From positions 32,001 through 96,000 of the IMG/VR virus record IMGVR_UViG_3300027631_000002: DNA of 64,000 bases, one strand, 5' to 3'. The position numbers were made by a program, and so were the translations under genes. Of this stretch, positions 830 to 30,571 are shown one piece after another (the stretch's first letter is position 1; the number at the start of each line of letters is the position of its first letter). The notes beneath the pieces were generated by a model. It saw only the letters and a program-made list of their open reading frames with translations, was not told the origin of the DNA and did not search any database. Origin of the DNA: a virus.

Positions 830-1420
830 TTATATTTCGTTTACTTTTTTTACTTTAAATAGTCTATTGATATTATCAAGTTTTGCTTTAATATCATCAA
901 GTAATTGTCTTTGAACTTTTGTGAAGGTTCTGCCTTGTTCCATCGCATCAACTATTGCACAAGTTTCATTGTAATAGTTAGTTCTGAATCTTTCGGATGC
1001 AGTAAATGCGTCAGCAATGTTATTAAATCTATCAGATAGTTTAATAGTAAAAGCTTTATCAGACATATTTAACATTTTATTTATTAAATAGGTTACTTTA
1101 CTACCATTATATTTATGTTTAATTTCATCTGTATTAGAGGTTAGTTCTAACATAAGATCTGCAACTTCTTTACCAAAAAGTTCTTTTACATCGGCATAAG
1201 CATCCCAAATATCATCATAACAATCTTCTGCCACATCGTGTAGTAAAGCAGCGATTAAAGTTGCTTCATCAGTAGTATATAACTTTAATGTACCGTTTAC
1301 TTTTTGTACGTGTGCATCAAAGTAGGATTCTCCTGTAAATTTTCTTACTTGATCTTTATGAGCTCTTTGGGCAAATTCCCAAGCTAGTTTTTCTTTTGAT
1401 GTGATAGGTGCGTTCGCCAT
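830..1420 (-). CDS. HD-domain small alarmone hydrolase-like protein (RelA/SpoT HD, Mesh1-like)
   Basis: AHKDQVRK..Y..H, AALLHDVAED and KLSDRFNN motifs. Confidence 0.85.
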   Translation of the reverse strand: MANAPITSKEKLAWEFAQRAHKDQVRKFTGESYFDAHVQKVNGTLKLYTTDEATLIAALLHDVAEDCYDDIWDAYADVKELFGKEVADLMLELTSNTDEIKHKYNGSKVTYLINKMLNMSDKAFTIKLSDRFNNIADAFTASERFRTNYYNETCAIVDAMEQGRTFTKVQRQLLDDIKAKLDNINRLFKVKKVNEI

Positions 1421-1461: not shown

Positions 1462-2337
1462 TTATTTTAATAAATTTAGTACTTGCTTTCCTCTTTTATC
1501 TAATTGTTTAAATTTAATTTTAAAAGAGGTACTCTCAATCCCACCAAACATTGCTGCGTTAGAGTGTAATTCACAAAGTGATGTTACTAATAATGTTAAA
1601 ACGGTTTCGATTGAATTACTTTTAACAAAATCTTCTACTTCATCTGATTTAATAGTATGAAATACCATATCTTTTAAGATTAAATCCGCAACTACTTTGT
1701 TATCAGAAATCTTTGAGAATGTATCAAATGAAACTTGTGCGTGGTTTGGAAAGTGTCTTTTACCTTCTTCGTCAATTATCATACAATAACTTTTCCCACA
1801 ATCGTGCATTACTTGATATTCTTTAATATCTTCTAATGAATGTAAGTTGTTAAGTAAAAACTCATTGTTATCGGTGAACCAAGTTGGTAATTTCCAGTTA
1901 TCGGTATCACCACTGATAAGTTTGTCAAAGTGTTTAGCAACAGATATACCGTGTTCTAATACGTTTTGAGTATCAGTTTGAGGTGTGGCTATCATATCAT
2001 AGATAACTTGTTGATAAGTAAGTTTTGGTTTTTTACCCAATAGTGGAAGATATGAAACTTTCTTTCTGACATCTTTATCTACATATAAGCAAATAGATGT
2101 GAGTTCATCGTTTAAATCTGGTTCGTAAAATTTTGTGACTGAGGTAAGTTTGGATAACTTTAAGTATAAGTCATTTAATTCTTTTTCATTGTTTACTTGT
2201 AAACAGATGATAGAGTTAGATGTGGTTTTCCATTCTTTAAATTGTTGTGGAAACTCGTATGCGAAGTCTGCAATTGAGTGACAACTTTGTTGACTTTGAT
2301 AACCGTAACTAAGATCTGATCTTGTTATAATTATCAT
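1462..2337 (-). CDS. PTH2-like (peptidyl-tRNA hydrolase 2 fold) domain fused to an HD domain
   Basis: N-term IIITRSDLS..Q..H..ICLQV..FYEPDL..TSIC; C-term EHG...HDCGK...HFPNHA. Confidence 0.7.
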   Translation of the reverse strand: MIIITRSDLSYGYQSQQSCHSIADFAYEFPQQFKEWKTTSNSIICLQVNNEKELNDLYLKLSKLTSVTKFYEPDLNDELTSICLYVDKDVRKKVSYLPLLGKKPKLTYQQVIYDMIATPQTDTQNVLEHGISVAKHFDKLISGDTDNWKLPTWFTDNNEFLLNNLHSLEDIKEYQVMHDCGKSYCMIIDEEGKRHFPNHAQVSFDTFSKISDNKVVADLILKDMVFHTIKSDEVEDFVKSNSIETVLTLLVTSLCELHSNAAMFGGIESTSFKIKFKQLDKRGKQVLNLLK

Positions 2338-2573: not shown

Positions 2574-2600
2574 AAATATTATCTTTTATTCCTTTTGTTG

Positions 2601-2666
2601 TGGCGATGGAGGGAATCGAACCCTCGGTCTTTGGGTTTAGAATCCTAGAACTCACCTGACAAAGCC
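2601..2666 (-). pseudogene. degenerate tRNA-like element, CUA anticodon by register
   Basis: perfect T arm GAGGG-TTCGATT-CCCTC; acceptor GGCTTTG/CATCGCC (2 mismatches); loop TTCTAAA; D arm reduced to 12 nt; no encoded CCA. Confidence 0.6.
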
Positions 2667-2961: not shown

Positions 2962-3171
2962 TTATTCTTGTTTTTTTAAATCATCAATTGCATATTGTTC
3001 TAATATCTCTGGATTATGTTTCCATTCTTTCCAAACTTCAAAATATTTTAGTCTTTCTAATGTTTCTTTTGGTATTAAAACAAATCCATCTGGTGCAACT
3101 GCACCAAATTTGTGATAGTGTGCGTTCTTAATTTTTTCTTTGATTTCTTCTGTAGTATTTTTTGGGTTCAT
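2962..3171 (-). CDS. hypothetical protein
   Basis: 69-aa ORF in operon. Confidence 0.65.
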   Translation of the reverse strand: MNPKNTTEEIKEKIKNAHYHKFGAVAPDGFVLIPKETLERLKYFEVWKEWKHNPEILEQYAIDDLKKQE

Positions 3172-3364
3172 CTTGTTTTTTAATATCTATTGTCTCAACT
3201 TTTTTAAATTTTAATAACCACCTATATAATTTAGGTGATATTATAAATACTACTTTCTCTATATTTGTTATCCATACATTTTCCCAAGTACCAATATTAC
3301 AAGTGTTACACTCTTTATCATATTGTTGATGAGCACTACATAGTGAGAACCATCTTTCTCTCAA
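3128..3364 (-). CDS. hypothetical protein (C/H-rich N-terminus)
   Basis: 78-aa ORF, TTG start, CSAH..CNTC. Confidence 0.55.
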   Translation of the reverse strand: MRERWFSLCSAHQQYDKECNTCNIGTWENVWITNIEKVVFIISPKLYRWLLKFKKVETIDIKKQDEPKKYYRRNQRKN

Positions 3365-3497
3365 AAAAATCTACCTTTATCTCTCATATAATAGTTATCT
3401 AGAAATTTATTTATTCTTTCGTTTACTACTTTATCATTAGTAAAGTATGTTTTATTCTTATTACTCTGCATTTCAAGTTATATCAAAAAAATGATAT

Positions 3498-4757
3498 TTA
3501 GTTTAATTTTGTTCGGATTCCAGGCATGTAAATCTCAATCAATTGTATCAATTCTTCTTTACATTCCGTAGTCAATGATTTATTTTTATTTTGGTTCATC
3601 AAAATCATAAATGAACTTACTACTTTATTAAATTTAAAAGCATCTGTAAAGTCAAATATAGTTTTCTTAAATGATTCTATATCAATAGTTTCTTCACCTG
3701 TTTTATCCAACCACGTTTTCATTCTATTTATAAATCTTCTAATTCCAATTATATTTTCATCAGACCAAGAACCACCATCAAAGTAGTGACCAATAAACAT
3801 CAAGTAAAATCTAATTTCATCTGGATCATAACCATCTAAACTAACTACATTTCCTTTAGACTTAGACATTTTTTCTCCTTCACTCAATATCATTCCTTGG
3901 TGTACCAATTTAGTAATTGGTTCTTCAAAGTCAATAAAGCCAATATCATACAAAAACATTGTAATAAATCTAATATAAATCAAGTGCATACAAGCATGTT
4001 CTGATCCACCAACATACAAATCAACTGGTTTTGGTTTGATACCTTTCATCAAGCAGTATATAATAGTGTAGATAGAACTATCTACGAACGTATCCATTGT
4101 ATCAGTTTCTCCTTCAATAGGAATAGGACAACCCCAACTTCTTTGTCTTGATACACACCAGTCGTGTTGGTTTTCCAACCAATTTCTTTGTGACTTTATT
4201 GTAGATTCTGGAAAGTCAATCTTATCCAAACCGGCAATCAATCTATCTTTATAGTCGGTAATTTTGAAATACCATTGATTCAATGTTTTCTTCTCTACTT
4301 CTGTAGAACATCTTTCACATTTACCTTCTTTTACTTGTTCTCTAGCCAATACAGTTTCACAACTATTACAGAAGTCAACTTCACCATCTTTTTTATAAGC
4401 CAAATCTTTATCATACAATTGTTTAAACAACCATTGTGTGTACTCAATATAGTTGGGATCTGAAGTAATCAACATTTCCTCATATTGAGTATTCATGTTA
4501 TCCATCTGTATTCTAAAATTTTCTATATTCTCGTAGGTAACTTCTCTTGGATCTCTACCTACTTTCTTAGCATAGTTTTCCGCTGGCAATCCAAATGAAT
4601 CATATCCAAATGGTTGAAAAACCGTTTCGCCTTTGTATCTCAAGTATCTGCAGTAGCTATCCATAATCGCATAGTTATACCAATGTCCACAGTGCAAACC
4701 ACTACCTGAAGGATATGGAAACATCACAGTTACATATTTATAGTTGTTATCATTCAT
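3498..4757 (-). CDS. leuS: minimal leucyl-tRNA synthetase-like protein lacking the CP1 editing domain
   Basis: MFPYPSG..LHCGH (HIGH), GYDSFGLPAEN, CxxC knuckles, DWCVSRQRSWG, KMSKS; 419 aa. Confidence 0.88.
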   Translation of the reverse strand: MNDNNYKYVTVMFPYPSGSGLHCGHWYNYAIMDSYCRYLRYKGETVFQPFGYDSFGLPAENYAKKVGRDPREVTYENIENFRIQMDNMNTQYEEMLITSDPNYIEYTQWLFKQLYDKDLAYKKDGEVDFCNSCETVLAREQVKEGKCERCSTEVEKKTLNQWYFKITDYKDRLIAGLDKIDFPESTIKSQRNWLENQHDWCVSRQRSWGCPIPIEGETDTMDTFVDSSIYTIIYCLMKGIKPKPVDLYVGGSEHACMHLIYIRFITMFLYDIGFIDFEEPITKLVHQGMILSEGEKMSKSKGNVVSLDGYDPDEIRFYLMFIGHYFDGGSWSDENIIGIRRFINRMKTWLDKTGEETIDIESFKKTIFDFTDAFKFNKVVSSFMILMNQNKNKSLTTECKEELIQLIEIYMPGIRTKLN

Positions 4758-4788
4758 CTTATTTATAGTCTTTATTATAGTTTAGTTG

Positions 4789-4796
4789 CAAATATA
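4789..4796 (-). promoter_or_regulatory. -7 promoter element
   Basis: TATATTTG upstream of leuS-like gene. Confidence 0.65.
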
Positions 4797-5864: not shown

Positions 5865-6338
5865 TTACAAGATATATTTTTTTATCATATCTGGACCACC
5901 AAATTGTTCAATCTTTCTAATTGCAGAAGACGAAATATGTTCAAACTCTTGGTCACAAGTAATGTAAACTACATTTATATCTTTTTTAAAGTCATTTATA
6001 AATCTCATTTGATTTACTTCGTAATCTAAATCAACACCATTTCTTAAACCTCTAATTATAACTACATTATAACCTTCTTTTTCATAATCTTCTACAAGTT
6101 CGTGTAAGAATTTACTATAAGTTATTACAGTTCTGTTTATTTTTTGAGAAATAAGTTTTGCTTTATTATCTTGTTCAAATAGGTAAGTTTTATCGTTAGT
6201 ATTTACTTTATCTGGATTGATACCTATTGCAGTAATGACGTTTCCTCTTCCAAAAATACGCTCTGCTTTCTCTAAAATGTTTAAATGACCTACGTGCATA
6301 GGATTAAAAGAGCCTGGATAAATTGCGATTGTTTTCAT
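5865..6338 (-). CDS. coaD: phosphopantetheine adenylyltransferase
   Basis: IAIYPGSFNPMHVGH, IIRGLRN..D..YE, ISSSAIR. Confidence 0.85.
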   Translation of the reverse strand: MKTIAIYPGSFNPMHVGHLNILEKAERIFGRGNVITAIGINPDKVNTNDKTYLFEQDNKAKLISQKINRTVITYSKFLHELVEDYEKEGYNVVIIRGLRNGVDLDYEVNQMRFINDFKKDINVVYITCDQEFEHISSSAIRKIEQFGGPDMIKKYIL

Positions 6339-6394
6339 AAGTTGAAATTATATACAAAGATATAGAAATTATATTATATTTAATAAAATTGTTT

Positions 6395-6402
6395 TATATT
6401 TG
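6395..6402 (+). promoter_or_regulatory. -7 promoter element
   Basis: TATATTTG 4 nt before ATG 6407; divergent TATCTTTG at 6355-6362. Confidence 0.65.
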
Positions 6403-6406
6403 TAGT

Positions 6407-6841
6407 ATGAATACACATAGTAAATTGCGAGAGATAGGTTTTACAAGAACTGATTTTCATAAACCTTATGAATACATGGATGGTGGTACTAATAATATGG
6501 TACTAGATAATGTTGTAAAAAAATGGGCTCAGAGAAAAGACGGCACTTATGGTTGGATAGAAATATCTAAGATACATCCAAAGTCTAATTCGTTTTGGAA
6601 ACTAGTTTTTAATGAAAGACATACAATTTGGATTTCTGTTGTGAATAATATTATAGATAAGGTTTGGTTAGAAGATAAAGAAATAAAAAGACCGATTGGT
6701 TATAGTAGTAGAGATGAAAGTCCATTGAAAACTATTTATACTTATGAAACTATAAATAAAATAACAAGCAAAAGACAAATAATCAATTTACTACCAGCTG
6801 CCATAAAAAGAGATTTTGTAATTAGAGATTTATTAAAATAA
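6407..6841 (+). CDS. hypothetical protein with C-terminal RDxK-type tail
   Basis: start moved to ATG downstream of promoter; ends KRDFVIRDLLK. Confidence 0.75.
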   Translation: MNTHSKLREIGFTRTDFHKPYEYMDGGTNNMVLDNVVKKWAQRKDGTYGWIEISKIHPKSNSFWKLVFNERHTIWISVVNNIIDKVWLEDKEIKRPIGYSSRDESPLKTIYTYETINKITSKRQIINLLPAAIKRDFVIRDLLK

Positions 6842-7044
6842 TGAAAGATATAGTAATAGTTGATCATAACTCTGGTGTAAACCAAGCATATGTTGATAGA
6901 TTTGGACCAATCATCGGTACTGAATTAGATGAGGATACACAGAAATCATATCAGACTATGGCCAAACGACTTAAAGAATTAGCAAAACGAAATATGAGAG
7001 TACTTAAAAGAAAAGAAAAAATAAAAAGAATATGCCAGAATTAG
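6841..7044 (+). CDS. hypothetical protein with RDxK-like tail
   Basis: ends KRKEKIKRICQN; overlaps both neighbours. Confidence 0.65.
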   Translation: MKDIVIVDHNSGVNQAYVDRFGPIIGTELDEDTQKSYQTMAKRLKELAKRNMRVLKRKEKIKRICQN

Positions 7045-7832
7045 CAGAAGTAAGAATTATGAGTGATTATATAAATCATCACTCAAAGAAAAGAAAATTT
7101 ACAAAATTATATCATGTTCAGAAAGGTAATATTCCAATCGACTCTGAACTAATCGAAGATTTTGAAGTAATTGCAGAATCTTTTGGTAAAGAACTACAAT
7201 TAAAAACAACAAATGATACAAAAACATTAGACTTCTCTGTATTTATGGGTATGTCTGGTAATTGGAAGTTTGTTCCTACTGAAAACTGGAATGATACTAA
7301 GTTTGTTAGAATGAGAATTGACACGGATGATGGTAATTCCTTATTACTTTATGGTTCATATATGGGACCAAGATACCGATTAGGTGCATTCACTGGTGTG
7401 AAAAGAGGACCAGACCCTACAAAAGAGTTTGATAAATTTAAAAGTAATGTTTTAGATAATTTAAAACTGAAAGCATTTGATAAACCAATTTGTGAGGTTC
7501 TTTTAAATCAAAAATACTTTAATGGAATCGGTAATTACTTACGTTCTACTATTCTTTATTATATAAATGTAAATCCATTTGAATCTGCTAGAACCATTAT
7601 CCTAGAGAATCCAGATATATTAGATTTTTGTAGAGATGTTCCAATTAAAGCTTACACATTAAATGGTGGTCAGCTTACTGATTGGACTAATCCATTCGAT
7701 TCTGATTATGAAGAGTTTAAGAAGTGGGTATTTTATCAGAAAGGTTTATCTTGTAGAGATAATACTGGTAGAACTTTCTGGTATGATGAGAAATGGGATT
7801 CTTATTCCATATATAAAAGTAAAACTAAATAG
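7032..7832 (+). CDS. nei: Fpg/Nei family DNA glycosylase (NEIL1-like, no Zn finger)
   Basis: N-terminal MPELAEV, FMGMSG, H2TH motif LLNQKYFNGIGNYLRSTILY. Confidence 0.88.
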   Translation: MPELAEVRIMSDYINHHSKKRKFTKLYHVQKGNIPIDSELIEDFEVIAESFGKELQLKTTNDTKTLDFSVFMGMSGNWKFVPTENWNDTKFVRMRIDTDDGNSLLLYGSYMGPRYRLGAFTGVKRGPDPTKEFDKFKSNVLDNLKLKAFDKPICEVLLNQKYFNGIGNYLRSTILYYINVNPFESARTIILENPDILDFCRDVPIKAYTLNGGQLTDWTNPFDSDYEEFKKWVFYQKGLSCRDNTGRTFWYDEKWDSYSIYKSKTK

Positions 7833-8043: not shown

Positions 8044-8898
8044 TTATACTACATCTTGCATTAATTCAAATGCTTCTTTTTCTATTTCTTTTTGAAGTAA
8101 CTCCATAGCTCTTGCTAATCTTGTTAAACCAATTCCTGCACCAAATCTTGGAAAGAAGTCAAATTTTAAGAAATCTTCTAATTCTTTTTCTACTCTTTCT
8201 TTTCCAAATAATTCAAATAGTTTTTCAGAATATCCACCATTTTCTATTGTATAAAACATTTTTCTCATAGAGTCAACTTCACAACTTCTTTCTGCCGCAC
8301 CTATTGTTTCTTGTCCATATAATATTACATCAACTTTGTTGAATAAATCATCTTGTTGATTTTTCATATTCCAAAATGGATTAGTTCTTAATGGAAAGTT
8401 TTGAAGAGAAACGCAATGACTTACTTCATTCCACATTTTACTTTCATGTTCATTTTCTAAAATTGATACGTCTCCATATTCTTTACAAGTTTTATTGTAA
8501 TCCATTTCAACAGGTGATCCAAATCCTAAATACTCAAGAAGTTCTTTTTCTAATAGAATTAAATCTTTATATTTACCTTTTGATTCAAACTCAAACATTG
8601 GAAAGATTAGTTCATGTCTTCCAGGAATTGGATTTTTTTCTGCTCTGTAGCTTGTAGATACACAGAAAACTCCTTCCCAAGTAGGATTTTTTAGAAGTTC
8701 ATACTCGAGCCACATTTGCCCTGTTTGTGGTAAAGGCCATATCTCACCATTGTATTCAAAGGTTGATACTGAGTGTGGGTTTTCACAAGCTGCTAAAATT
8801 GATAGTCTAGATTGTGTTGGTACTTCTACGAAGTTTTTTTCCAAAAAAAATTCTCTTAGTTTCTGAACTAGAGAATTGTACATTAAAGTGTTTGTCAT
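8044..8898 (-). CDS. class II aaRS catalytic-domain-only protein (AsnRS/AspRS-like, no anticodon OB domain)
   Basis: motif 1 LREFFLEKNFVEVPT, motif 2 SYRAE..RH..FPMFEFE, motif 3 GAGIGLTRL; 284 aa. Confidence 0.8.
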   Translation of the reverse strand: MTNTLMYNSLVQKLREFFLEKNFVEVPTQSRLSILAACENPHSVSTFEYNGEIWPLPQTGQMWLEYELLKNPTWEGVFCVSTSYRAEKNPIPGRHELIFPMFEFESKGKYKDLILLEKELLEYLGFGSPVEMDYNKTCKEYGDVSILENEHESKMWNEVSHCVSLQNFPLRTNPFWNMKNQQDDLFNKVDVILYGQETIGAAERSCEVDSMRKMFYTIENGGYSEKLFELFGKERVEKELEDFLKFDFFPRFGAGIGLTRLARAMELLQKEIEKEAFELMQDVV

Positions 8899-28719: not shown

Positions 28720-29238
28720 ATGTTAGACATTGGTAAAACAAATCTTTTCCTAAATGACAAAGCTAAATATGTTGTTAGTAAACTAATAGACGATTATGAT
28801 CTTATGGGTCAAAATTGTTTGTTTTTAACTCATAAGAATGACACGTTACAACTTAAATGTGCTTCTTGTACTTATACTACTTATGATTCAATACCAGATA
28901 TTTTATCTGAGAATTTATTTAGAGTAAATATTATTATTGTCGAGTCAAATAGAAAATTTAATTTTTTACTTGATTCTATAAGAGAAGTAACAGATTTACC
29001 AGTTATTGTAGTTACTGATGATTTATCATATGATTATCCAGATTATAGATTTGATTATATTTATAAACTTTATAGACAAGAAAGAGATATAAATTTCCCA
29101 TTAAATATAGATAGATTTGAAGAAGAATTTTTAAATAGTTCACATATAACAGATGTTAAAAATAATTGGAGCACATCTTTGGCAGATTTAAGAACACAAT
29201 ACATTAGAGATAAAAAAATTAACGATTTATTAAAATAA
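28720..29238 (+). CDS. hypothetical protein with RDxK tail
   Basis: ends IRDKKINDLLK. Confidence 0.72.
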   Translation: MLDIGKTNLFLNDKAKYVVSKLIDDYDLMGQNCLFLTHKNDTLQLKCASCTYTTYDSIPDILSENLFRVNIIIVESNRKFNFLLDSIREVTDLPVIVVTDDLSYDYPDYRFDYIYKLYRQERDINFPLNIDRFEEEFLNSSHITDVKNNWSTSLADLRTQYIRDKKINDLLK

Positions 29239-29240
29239 AA

Positions 29241-29666
29241 ATGAAAGCACACGTAATTGTAAAAAAAGGTTATGAGTATGATGATAGCATCTATACTGAG
29301 TCAGAGGGTGGAAATCCTGAATTGATTTGTTTCTCAAAAGAGGATGCGGATAATAAAGTAAATGAATTAAATAAACAGGAGTTTAAAACAACTTCACTTA
29401 GTTATTATTCATATGAATTAGAAGACATATTAAATGTTGATATTGAAGAATATGAAAAGTTCAATCAATCCTTGGTTGAAAAGTATGGTAAGATAGCGAA
29501 AAAAGATTCTTGGAATGATGTTGAAAATACTTTACATCCAATGGCAAATGATGAAGAGATTGAGAAATATATAAAGATGGTTAGTATAAGTTTTTATGAA
29601 GTAAAACCGACAGACATTGATGTTCAAAGTTTTAGAGATTATAAAATTGATGAAGTATTAAAATAA
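29241..29666 (+). CDS. hypothetical protein with RDxK tail
   Basis: ends FRDYKIDEVLK. Confidence 0.72.
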   Translation: MKAHVIVKKGYEYDDSIYTESEGGNPELICFSKEDADNKVNELNKQEFKTTSLSYYSYELEDILNVDIEEYEKFNQSLVEKYGKIAKKDSWNDVENTLHPMANDEEIEKYIKMVSISFYEVKPTDIDVQSFRDYKIDEVLK

Positions 29667-29692
29667 GAAAATGAAGAAAGAATATATATGTT

Positions 29693-30571
29693 ATGAGATA
29701 TATATTCTTTCTTTTTCTATTTATATTATTTTCTTGTAAAACTACAAAGAATACAATTGTGTTACCTACACCTTTAGAAACTTTTTGTGATAGTGATGAG
29801 GATGGTGTTGATGATATGTATGATAAATGTCCTGATATAAAAGGTAGAGTAGAAAATATGGGTTGTCCTGATATTGAGGAAAATGAAAAGTATTCCGGAA
29901 CAAAAGATGATATTGAAATTGTTGGATCACCAAAAGAGCCAGTTCCTGTAATAGTTGCTAAAGATAGAAATACTAAAACTGGTACAAAAAAAAATGATCC
30001 ACTGGTAATTAAACCTAAAGAGGTTAGACCTAGAGGTTTAATAGCTTATTCTGTACCAAATGAAATGCAAGTTGGTGATGATTATTTAGTAAAAGTTAGA
30101 ATAAGTAAACTGAATGATAGAACTGTTTTATTAGTTGGTGATAGAGAGATTCCTATATCTGATAATTTAGAGGATGTTAAAGTTGAATCAATTACAGTTT
30201 CTCCAATAATGTCTGCGAGTTTATTATCAAGTAAAAGAGATTTTGAGATAACTACATTATCAACAGAAATTCAAAATATAGATGATGAAGGATATACTGA
30301 ATGGAGTTGGAGTGTAATTCCTTTACAAGGTGGTGAAAATAATTTAAAACTTAATGTAAAAATTAGAATACAAGAAGAAGGTAAAGACTATTATAAGGAT
30401 ATTACCGTCTTTGAAAGAAAGATAAAAGTCAAGTCTAATATTGGTTCCAGTATAAAAGACTTCATATTCAAAAACTGGGAGTGGTTTATGGGAGTGGTTT
30501 TTATCCCGATTTTTCAATGGTTTTGGCTATTGTGGAAGAGGAAAAAAGAAGATAAAAAAGAAGATGTTTAA
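29693..30571 (+). CDS. lipoprotein with TSP3-like Ca-binding repeat and C-terminal TM helix
   Basis: ILFSC lipobox; DSDEDGVDDMYDKCP; WEWFMGVVFIPIFQWFWLLW. Confidence 0.75.
   Translation: MRYIFFLFLFILFSCKTTKNTIVLPTPLETFCDSDEDGVDDMYDKCPDIKGRVENMGCPDIEENEKYSGTKDDIEIVGSPKEPVPVIVAKDRNTKTGTKKNDPLVIKPKEVRPRGLIAYSVPNEMQVGDDYLVKVRISKLNDRTVLLVGDREIPISDNLEDVKVESITVSPIMSASLLSSKRDFEITTLSTEIQNIDDEGYTEWSWSVIPLQGGENNLKLNVKIRIQEEGKDYYKDITVFERKIKVKSNIGSSIKDFIFKNWEWFMGVVFIPIFQWFWLLWKRKKEDKKEDV

Follow-up and report, generated by a model that had tools for sequence, protein, structure and literature searches.

Can a leucyl-tRNA synthetase (LeuRS) that has been cut to about half its usual size still supply leucine to translation? 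The question is raised by a gene in bases 32001-96000 of the 179,626-bp IMG/VR viral record IMGVR_UViG_3300027631_000002, a stretch of 64,000 nucleotides that is referred to here as the window. An intact open reading frame (ORF) on the minus strand (3498..4757; stop codon TAA at 3498-3500) encodes a protein of 419 residues, P0001, and its frame remains open for just eight codons further 5' of its ATG. The reading favoured here, with moderate confidence, is that the product is a working, editing-free minimal LeuRS of a Mahaphage-type phage, which charges tRNA-Leu and which can be made when Leu-tRNA is scarce.

A Bacterial-Type LeuRS of Half Size

By sequence and by fold, the protein is a bacterial-type LeuRS, nearer to LeuRS than to the synthetases for methionine (MetRS), isoleucine, valine or cysteine. 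Pfam finds class I synthetase catalytic domains in it, and, among the NCBIfam models, the bacterial LeuRS model TIGR00396 (leuS_bact) comes far first, with 367.7 bits compared to 139 bits for the MetRS model (metG). In a sequence search of the PDB, the top 17 matches are all LeuRS, the best being that of Mycoplasma mobile (3ZIU, E 1.2e-77), and this same structure is the best Foldseek match (TM 0.92) of an AlphaFold2 model of the phage protein. The model, which has a predicted local distance difference test score (pLDDT) of 94.3 and a predicted template modelling score (pTM) of 0.92, superposes over 418-419 residues on the LeuRS of Thermus thermophilus (residues 26-791 of 878), of Escherichia coli (27-773 of 860) and of M. 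mobile (32-553). These superpositions have Z-scores of 33-37 and root-mean-square deviations of 2.0-2.9 Å (VIA Z 37 at 2.4 Å over 418 residues for the T. thermophilus enzyme).

What has been lost was determined from an alignment, A1, of the phage protein with 58 full-length LeuRS. Missing from the phage protein are the N-terminal residues (around 28), the CP1 editing domain, which occupies 173-600 residues in the others and would follow residue 195, a constant insert of 52 residues, which would follow residue 214, behind the WGCPIP motif, and the C-terminal residues (around 86) that constitute the tRNA-elbow-binding domain. The same gaps are seen in the alignment to T. thermophilus LeuRS, in which residues 6-196 of the phage protein correspond to 34-226, 198-214 to 420-436, 210-307 to 487-595, and 296-352 to 637-697. 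The first-pass annotation of this DNA had described a LeuRS of 419 residues, about half the normal size and without the CP1 editing domain, and this description is borne out by A1, by the T. thermophilus alignment and by the AlphaFold2 model. It had also proposed the loss of the C-terminal tRNA-binding domain. This is correct for the elbow-binding domain but not for the helical anticodon-binding domain (residues 311-419; 3501..3827, minus strand), which is retained, with helices in the model at 312-418 and an alignment to the corresponding LeuRS domain.

The deletions have left characteristic scars. CP1 is replaced by a linker of three to four residues (ENQH) within the sequence NWLENQHDWCVSRQR (NWLENQH-DWCVSRQR, residues 192-206; 4140..4184, minus strand), which was located from the map of inserts in A1 and the junction of which is conserved in 29 out of 29 phage homologues. 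In the second scar, WGCPIPIEGETDTMDTF (residues 208-224; 4086..4136, minus strand), around three residues stand in place of the 52-residue insert, which corresponds to the ZN2 region of T. thermophilus LeuRS. Both scars are conserved, as NWLEN(Q/L)H-DWCVSRQR and WGCPIP-x-GE-x-DT-x-DTF, respectively. The leucine-specific domain is reduced to the tetrapeptide SEGE, which lies just before the KMSKS loop.

The synthetic site, by contrast with the deleted parts, has been kept. The HxGH signature (HCGH, residues 22-25; 4683..4694, minus strand) has H22, G24 and H25 invariant in the 29 phage homologues and in A1, and the KMSKS loop (residues 296-300; 3858..3872, minus strand) is invariant or nearly so in these homologues. 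Both motifs are therefore intact, as the first-pass annotation had stated; its plural zinc knuckles must, however, be reduced to one, the ZN1 knuckle C130/C133/C147/C150 (4308..4370, minus strand), in which all four cysteines are kept in 28 of the 29 homologues, because the site of the second zinc module of T. thermophilus LeuRS falls inside the deleted 52-residue insert. In the 58 full-length LeuRS, 131 columns are at least 90% conserved. The deleted parts account for 31 of these, and the phage protein has the same residue in 85 of the remaining 100, including HxGH, KMSKS, D53, E60, H254 and H258; among the retained residues of the Leu-AMP site are the amino-group-binding aspartate and the HxxxH pair in the leucine pocket. 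Since the synthetic site is intact, the enzyme is predicted to activate leucine.

The Phage, Its Relatives and the Constraint on the Gene

The best public relative of the window is LR745206.1, an uncultured phage of 634,780 bp (here with loci W01, L043 and L045), whose LeuRS homologue is 70.8% identical to that of the window; a more distant homologue is found in LR756501.1, of 735,411 bp (loci W02 and L003). The window, which has a G+C content of 28% and comes from a record estimated by CheckV to be around 30% complete, is a piece of a Mahaphage-type huge phage. Al-Shayeb et al. (2020) defined the Mahaphage clade, with genomes of 634-735 kb, predicted Bacteroidetes as its hosts, and reported up to 15 tRNA synthetases and up to 67 tRNAs per genome in huge phages, the domain make-up of the synthetases not being covered (PMC7162821). 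The host of the phage carrying the window was probably a member of the Bacteroidota. Stop codon usage is standard, with TAA ending 160 of the 179 long ORFs of the fragment, in which no recoding of TAG or TGA was seen, read-through of either codon gaining an equal and small ORF length. The stretch is contained, at a share of at least 0.9, in three sequencing runs labelled as marine metagenome, and is matched in part in runs from lakes, rivers and estuaries.

The compact form is widespread. More than 120 protein clusters (at the 90% identity level) are 75-100% identical to the phage LeuRS and have the same length (382-450 residues), and the contigs that bear them reach 648 kb. At 28 of the 29 IMG/VR loci with a homologue, the ORF is intact, with 410-487 codons for amino acids, and at one it is interrupted. 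Relaxed selection, with a ratio of non-synonymous to synonymous substitution rates (dN/dS) near 1, on which the first-pass annotation had staked its reading, is not seen: dN/dS is 0.04-0.10 in comparisons with close relatives, and its median in 59 unsaturated pairs is 0.107. The helical anticodon-binding domain, with values of 0.05-0.16, is under a constraint almost equal to that on the core. To judge from these substitution patterns, the gene is live and not decaying.

The compact proteins group in a single clade on a tree built from the shared columns, and this clade is present in many such phages. The sister protein P0122 (530 residues, 57% identical) keeps a 115-residue remnant that matches the editing-domain family PF13603 with 74 bits, and P0124 is a further intermediate form beside it; the CP1 remnant of P0122 implies that the reduction passed through an intermediate. 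The LR756501 homologue, of 508 residues, lacks CP1 and the C-terminal domain and still has the 52-residue insert, and the homologue at locus L038, of 487 residues, has a C-terminal extension of 60 residues that resembles neither the C-terminal domain of LeuRS nor any Pfam family. The loss of CP1 alone has occurred many times elsewhere on the LeuRS tree, in forms of 569-706 residues that have both the insert and the C-terminus. No bacterial donor was evident in a scan of contigs, in which the best LeuRS were 45-54% identical (over the N-terminal half) and came from many phyla, none of them Bacteroidota. A search of the literature found no paper describing a half-size phage LeuRS.

In contigs from one lake run and one marine run, the sequences on either side of the LeuRS gene are joined nearly at the borders of the gene (3455-4782), with 1147-1319 bases skipped. 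Some related phages may lack the gene, although this is just a hint, given the short sides of the junctions and a likeness set at 85%.

Leucine Codon Economy

The gene is also written in an unusual way. Of its 26 leucine codons, 24 are TTG and two are TTA, whereas over 133 ORFs of the genome TTG makes up 10% and TTA 58% of the leucine codons, and the ORF with the next-highest TTG share reaches 33%. The deviation of the leucine family has a p value of 1e-19; alanine comes next (p = 0.005), and no other family is strongly off. Since only the leucine family deviates, this is not the signature of a foreign gene. The TTG share is 92-100% in the clade of the window, in L024, L026 and L028, and in LR745206 (W01, 18 out of 18), and it is 74-85% in six further lineages.

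Two relatives achieve a similar economy by other means. At locus L034 (gene 6001-7260), 19 of the 20 leucines of the LeuRS are encoded by CTG, and L034 is the only locus with a tRNA-Leu(CAG) in the adjacent tRNA array. In LR756501, the LeuRS of 508 residues (L003:3986-5512) contains no leucine at all, methionine or isoleucine occupying the positions at which leucine is usually conserved; the leucine content of the surrounding genes is normal.

This codon economy is best read as an insulation of the synthesis of the enzyme from the general Leu-tRNA pool, because, as selective-charging theory is said to predict, a C34 tRNA that reads a rare codon stays charged when the demand on the TTA-reading tRNA is extreme. 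Elf in 2003 and Dittmar in 2005 reportedly described such selective charging of rare-codon isoacceptors during starvation. The leucine-free homologue of LR756501 is then the limiting case of insulation. An alternative is a timing gate of the kind known from Streptomyces, where bldA controls the translation of genes containing TTA codons: translation of the LeuRS gene would await the phage tRNA-Leu(CAA). A link to translation would follow from this alternative as well, although the leucine-free form fits it less well. A related phenomenon, cognate bias, is shown by amino-acid biosynthetic enzymes (Fasani and Savageau 2014, PMC4209129). In all of these systems, a gene avoids, or puts through a single codon, the amino acid that its product supplies; the phage case differs in that the product is a viral tRNA synthetase and in that the bias is extreme (92-100% of one rare codon, or no leucine in 508 residues). 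No paper reporting such an extreme channelling of leucine codons, or a leucine-free LeuRS, was found in the literature.

tRNA-Leu Genes Beside the LeuRS Gene

In six relatives (LR756501 at W02, L026, L034, L035, L036/37 and L038), the nearest tRNA gene upstream of the LeuRS gene is a tRNA-Leu gene. The upstream arrays carry between one and seven of these genes, and at L036 and L038 the last of them stops 15-22 nt 5' of the LeuRS ATG. Directly upstream of the leucine-free LeuRS of LR756501 (L003:2620-3164) there are five tRNA-Leu genes, three with a long variable arm and two with a short one, and at L034 (4460-5192) there are seven, comprising long and short versions for both UAA and CAA, plus the tRNA-Leu(CAG).

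Short-arm tRNA-Leu genes, of 74-76 nt, have UAA, CAA or UAG anticodons, A73, G18G19 and a variable loop of 4-5 nt; they were found in LR745206, LR756501, L026, L034 and L036, beside normal tRNA-Leu genes of 81-92 nt. Outside animal mitochondria, tRNA-Leu is normally long-armed (PMC9976931). An exception is Streptomyces coelicolor, where a type I (short-arm) tRNA-Leu(CAA) is charged by the single, ordinary LeuRS (PMC6614811). This tRNA resembles the short-arm tRNAs of the phage relatives, which have leucine anticodons and A73; the difference lies in the synthetase, which in S. coelicolor is full-length and is aided by its leucine-specific domain, whereas the phage enzyme lacks both that domain and the C-terminal domain.

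The converse is also seen in LR745206.1, where the variable arm of tRNA-Lys(UUU/CUU) genes, which span 84-87 nt, is long and paired (L043:1294-1559 and L045) and some tRNA-Asn and tRNA-Arg genes are of 87-90 nt, these being class-II-shaped forms of normally short tRNAs. The presence of short-arm tRNA-Leu and long-arm tRNA-Lys in the same phages implies that arm length is loose for several isotypes. A private pairing of the LeuRS with the short-arm tRNA-Leu is possible but unproven.

Does the Minimal LeuRS Charge tRNA-Leu?

In the mechanism proposed here, leucine would be activated to Leu-AMP in the fully conserved class Ia synthetic site and would then be passed to tRNA-Leu, encoded by the phage and/or the host. 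The tRNA would be held only via the catalytic core, ZN1 and the helical anticodon-binding domain that has been retained, with no proofreading by CP1 and no contact between a C-terminal domain and the elbow. During infection, the enzyme would serve to maintain a supply of Leu-tRNA for the phage genes, which are very rich in TTA, and its own synthesis would depend minimally on the general Leu-tRNA pool, thanks to one rare codon, a dedicated C34 tRNA or the absence of leucine. The first-pass annotation had given equal weight to uses outside translation, such as the synthesis of ApnA (diadenosine polyphosphates) or the donation of aminoacyl groups, and to the charging of the 2601-2666 RNA. Such an equal weighting is not justified, since the codon economy, the tRNA-Leu arrays upstream in relatives and the purifying selection on the helical domain point instead to tRNA-Leu and translation.

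Several observations weigh against this mechanism. To our knowledge, charging of tRNA is not known from any natural LeuRS that lacks the C-terminal domain. Deletion of this domain abolishes aminoacylation by the LeuRS of E. coli and T. thermophilus (PMC3561953), and because such a deletion kills the bacterial enzymes, charging by the phage enzyme can only be put forward as a prediction. Its lack of proofreading in vivo and its physiological role are likewise predictions. No separate CP1 or C-terminal piece was found with a full-length LeuRS query in the fragment, in which the compact gene is the sole match, or in the two complete relatives LR745206 and LR756501; in LR745206, the query also matched three further class I synthetase-like ORFs, of which one has a CP1 of its own, and no match covers the LeuRS C-terminal domain. 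No RNA-binding family was matched by the nearby ORFs 3128-3364, 2962-3171 and 2721-2960, or by the ORF of 169 codons that follows the LeuRS gene at W01. The match to leuS_bact is split into four stretches, and its 367.7 bits are below the cut-off of 548.4 bits, since half of the model finds nothing to align with in the phage protein. tRNA-Leu genes are absent from the 180-kb record of the window and from the fragments of its five closest relatives (15-60% complete), and there is none near the LeuRS gene in the closest clade of the window, which has lost the adjacency of tRNA-Leu and LeuRS. The leucine codon bias is absent in about one third of the relatives. Finally, in a lake metatranscriptome, only two short contigs of low depth, from a relative, lie on 4009-4335; they were rejected as a sign of transcription, since carry-over of DNA is possible.

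Since the phage protein lacks the domain on which charging by bacterial LeuRS depends, it may be a paralogue that no longer charges, and that makes Leu-AMP and/or binds tRNA-Leu for leucine sensing, for the sequestering of tRNA, for the loading of another acceptor or for ApnA synthesis. There is a parallel in archaeal LeuRS-I, which binds tRNA-Leu and forms the adenylate without aminoacylation (Weitzel 2020, as cited in PMC9437257), and the neighbours of the phage gene include genes for an HD_4 alarmone-hydrolase-like and a cytidylyltransferase-like protein. However, all of the motifs of the tRNA 3'-end and adenylate sites are conserved, no acceptor or carrier gene is kept beside the LeuRS gene across relatives, synteny varying by clade, and the adjacent tRNA-Leu arrays, together with the pressure for a leucine-poor synthesis, best fit an enzyme required in the absence of Leu-tRNA. 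A non-charging paralogue is consequently considered unlikely. A partner that replaces the elbow-binding domain, either the LeuRS of the host or another protein of phage or host origin that acts in trans, would allow the enzyme to charge tRNA-Leu despite its deletion; in the split LeuRS of Aquifex aeolicus, the beta subunit carries the tRNA-binding C-terminal domain (PMC3561953), and in a record that covers around 30% of the phage genome such a partner could lie elsewhere. Yet neither a CP1 piece nor a LeuRS C-terminal piece could be detected in the complete 634-kb genome of LR745206, and the immediate neighbours of the LeuRS gene are not conserved across clades, which makes dependence on a partner improbable.

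A further proposal, taken in part from the first-pass annotation, concerns the substrate: not ordinary tRNA-Leu but the RNA at 2601-2666, that is, a tRNA-like RNA (2598-2666, minus strand), or else a tRNA of the amber-suppressor type. The element, which occupies 2598-2715 if its promoter is included, lies 840 nt downstream of the LeuRS gene on the same strand. Its T arm is perfect, its discriminator base is A, and it is preceded by a conserved Bacteroidota-type promoter, TTTGG-N-TATCTTTG, at 2685-2715, while at L018 and L020 there is a longer form, with D and anticodon stems of 6 bp, that allows a CUA anticodon register to be drawn. In the window, however, the element has lost the D arm and has two mismatches in its acceptor stem; it falls below every tRNA threshold, with 27 bits to the tRNA-like domain of transfer-messenger RNA, and its homologues in relatives (L014-L017) score 23-28 bits against the tRNA model RF00005. 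Most of the relatives that bear the LeuRS gene lack it, and, as to amber suppression, read-through of TAG gains no more ORF length than that of TGA in a fragment without recoding. The element is a degenerate tRNA-like remnant, nothing ties it specifically to the LeuRS, and it is very unlikely to be the true substrate.

Implications

In the textbook account of bacterial LeuRS, the C-terminal domain is required for charging, and CP1 keeps isoleucine, methionine and norvaline off leucine codons. A natural form of 419 residues that is maintained by selection throughout a large and widespread clade of phages would lower the size limit for a class Ia synthetase and would demand a new answer to the question of how tRNA-Leu is recognised. 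Moreover, the leucine-specific writing of the gene would be a rare case of a coding sequence that reports when its protein is needed, which suggests that the supply of Leu-tRNA is a bottleneck or a battleground in infection by AT-rich huge phages. A compact LeuRS would also be attractive for orthogonal tRNA-synthetase pairs.

A bolder proposal, which can be advanced only tentatively, is that the huge phages of this clade run their own leucine-decoding channel, one that could be started from nothing and that would consist of a half-size LeuRS devoid of proofreading and of elbow recognition, sets of tRNA-Leu that include short-arm forms, and a LeuRS gene that is leucine-free or that uses a single rare leucine codon, for which the phage has a dedicated tRNA. 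If this were true, the phage could restore Leu-tRNA once the host's supply of LeuRS or tRNA-Leu has failed or has been switched off, be it by the phage itself or by a defence of the host. The recognition of tRNA-Leu would occur in a new way, for example by a reading of the anticodon stem-loop through the helical domain, as in MetRS, and the enzyme would be the smallest natural LeuRS scaffold for engineering.

The Promoter and Neighbouring Genes

A host-type promoter had been assigned to the LeuRS gene in the first-pass annotation, and this assignment survives in part. A candidate Bacteroidota-type -7 box, TATATTTG (4789..4796, minus strand), lies 32 nt before the ATG in a gap of 63 nt, and it is kept in four close relatives (L014, L015, L017 and L018), in which the flanking bases vary. 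The -33 element is imperfect, however, being TTTA rather than TTTG, and the motif TAnnTTTG is not enriched in the window (128 occurrences compared to 111 +/- 11 expected), the -7 motif alone not being above chance.

Two other synthetase genes are found nearby. At 8044-8898 (minus strand), a 284-residue class II synthetase core (Pfam tRNA-synt_2, with weak matches to AsnRS and AspRS) lacks the N-terminal anticodon-binding OB domain, and at genome positions 29208-30044 (minus strand), around 2 kb before the window, a GluRS-like ORF of 278 residues starts with MVTRVAPSPTGFFHLGT. With the LeuRS gene, these make three cut-down synthetases in around 12 kb. A wider rule, whereby phage synthetases avoid their own amino acid, was considered and fails: the AsnRS-like gene has no bias in asparagine codons or content, and the glutamate content and codons of the GluRS-like gene are ordinary.

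The LeuRS region is flanked by a cytidylyltransferase-like gene of the NMNAT/PPAT type (5865-6338, minus strand) and by a gene for an Fpg/Nei-like DNA glycosylase (7032-7832, plus strand). At 1462-2337 (minus strand), a 291-residue protein matches the peptidyl-tRNA hydrolase PTH2 over its first 68 residues or so, and its gene is adjoined by that of an HD_4 protein (RelA/SpoT-hydrolase-like; 830-1420, minus strand).

Comparison with Known Synthetases

Among known enzymes, the LeuRS of M. mobile (3ZIU, 637 residues), described as "exceptionally small", lacks both CP1 and the leucine-specific domain and yet charges tRNA-Leu (PMC3643597). As in the phage enzyme, CP1 has become a short linker and the leucine-specific domain a tetrapeptide (GKDG in M. 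mobile, SEGE in the phage). The linker is, however, of nine residues in M. mobile and of three to four in the phage, and the phage enzyme is 218 residues shorter, since it also lacks the N-terminal residues (around 28), the 52-residue insert and the C-terminal domain; 3ZIU has around 65 extra residues between positions 227 and 243 of the phage protein and around 100 extra at the C-terminus. Natural CP1-less LeuRS of the M. mobile type, of around 610-640 residues in total, keep both the insert and the C-terminal domain. The phage and M. mobile enzymes are not close kin, CP1 having been lost many times over in the LeuRS tree.

The absence of the C-terminal domain is shared with engineered forms of E. 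coli and T. thermophilus LeuRS which, as cited in PMC3561953, have lost both aminoacylation and editing; the phage form, in contrast, is natural and occurs across a large clade under strong purifying selection. The LeuRS-I of the Sulfolobaceae is likewise an accessory copy, in which CP1 is damaged or missing and the C-terminus altered, but it is archaeal-type, full-length and cellular, and neither codon economy nor linkage to tRNA genes is reported for it. At the other extreme, in the engineered LeuRS urzyme LeuAC (bioRxiv 10.1101/2025.04.05.647346), the removal of CP1 and the anticodon-binding domain leaves around 130 residues, whereas the phage LeuRS keeps the anticodon-binding domain, ZN1 and a complete Rossmann fold.

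A likeness in layout is also found outside the LeuRS family, in the complex of A. aeolicus MetRS with tRNA (PDB 2CT8/2CSX, 465-497 residues), on which the phage model superposes with a Z-score of 32.7 over 378 residues. The stripped class Ia layout common to the phage enzyme and minimal MetRS consists of the Rossmann fold, a small zinc-containing connective peptide, the KMSKS/stem-contact region and a helical anticodon-binding bundle. A. aeolicus MetRS belongs to another amino-acid family (22% identity), and the reading of the anticodon is a MetRS feature. This 465-residue MetRS, which is active although it has the same minimal class Ia layout, serves as a precedent for the phage LeuRS.

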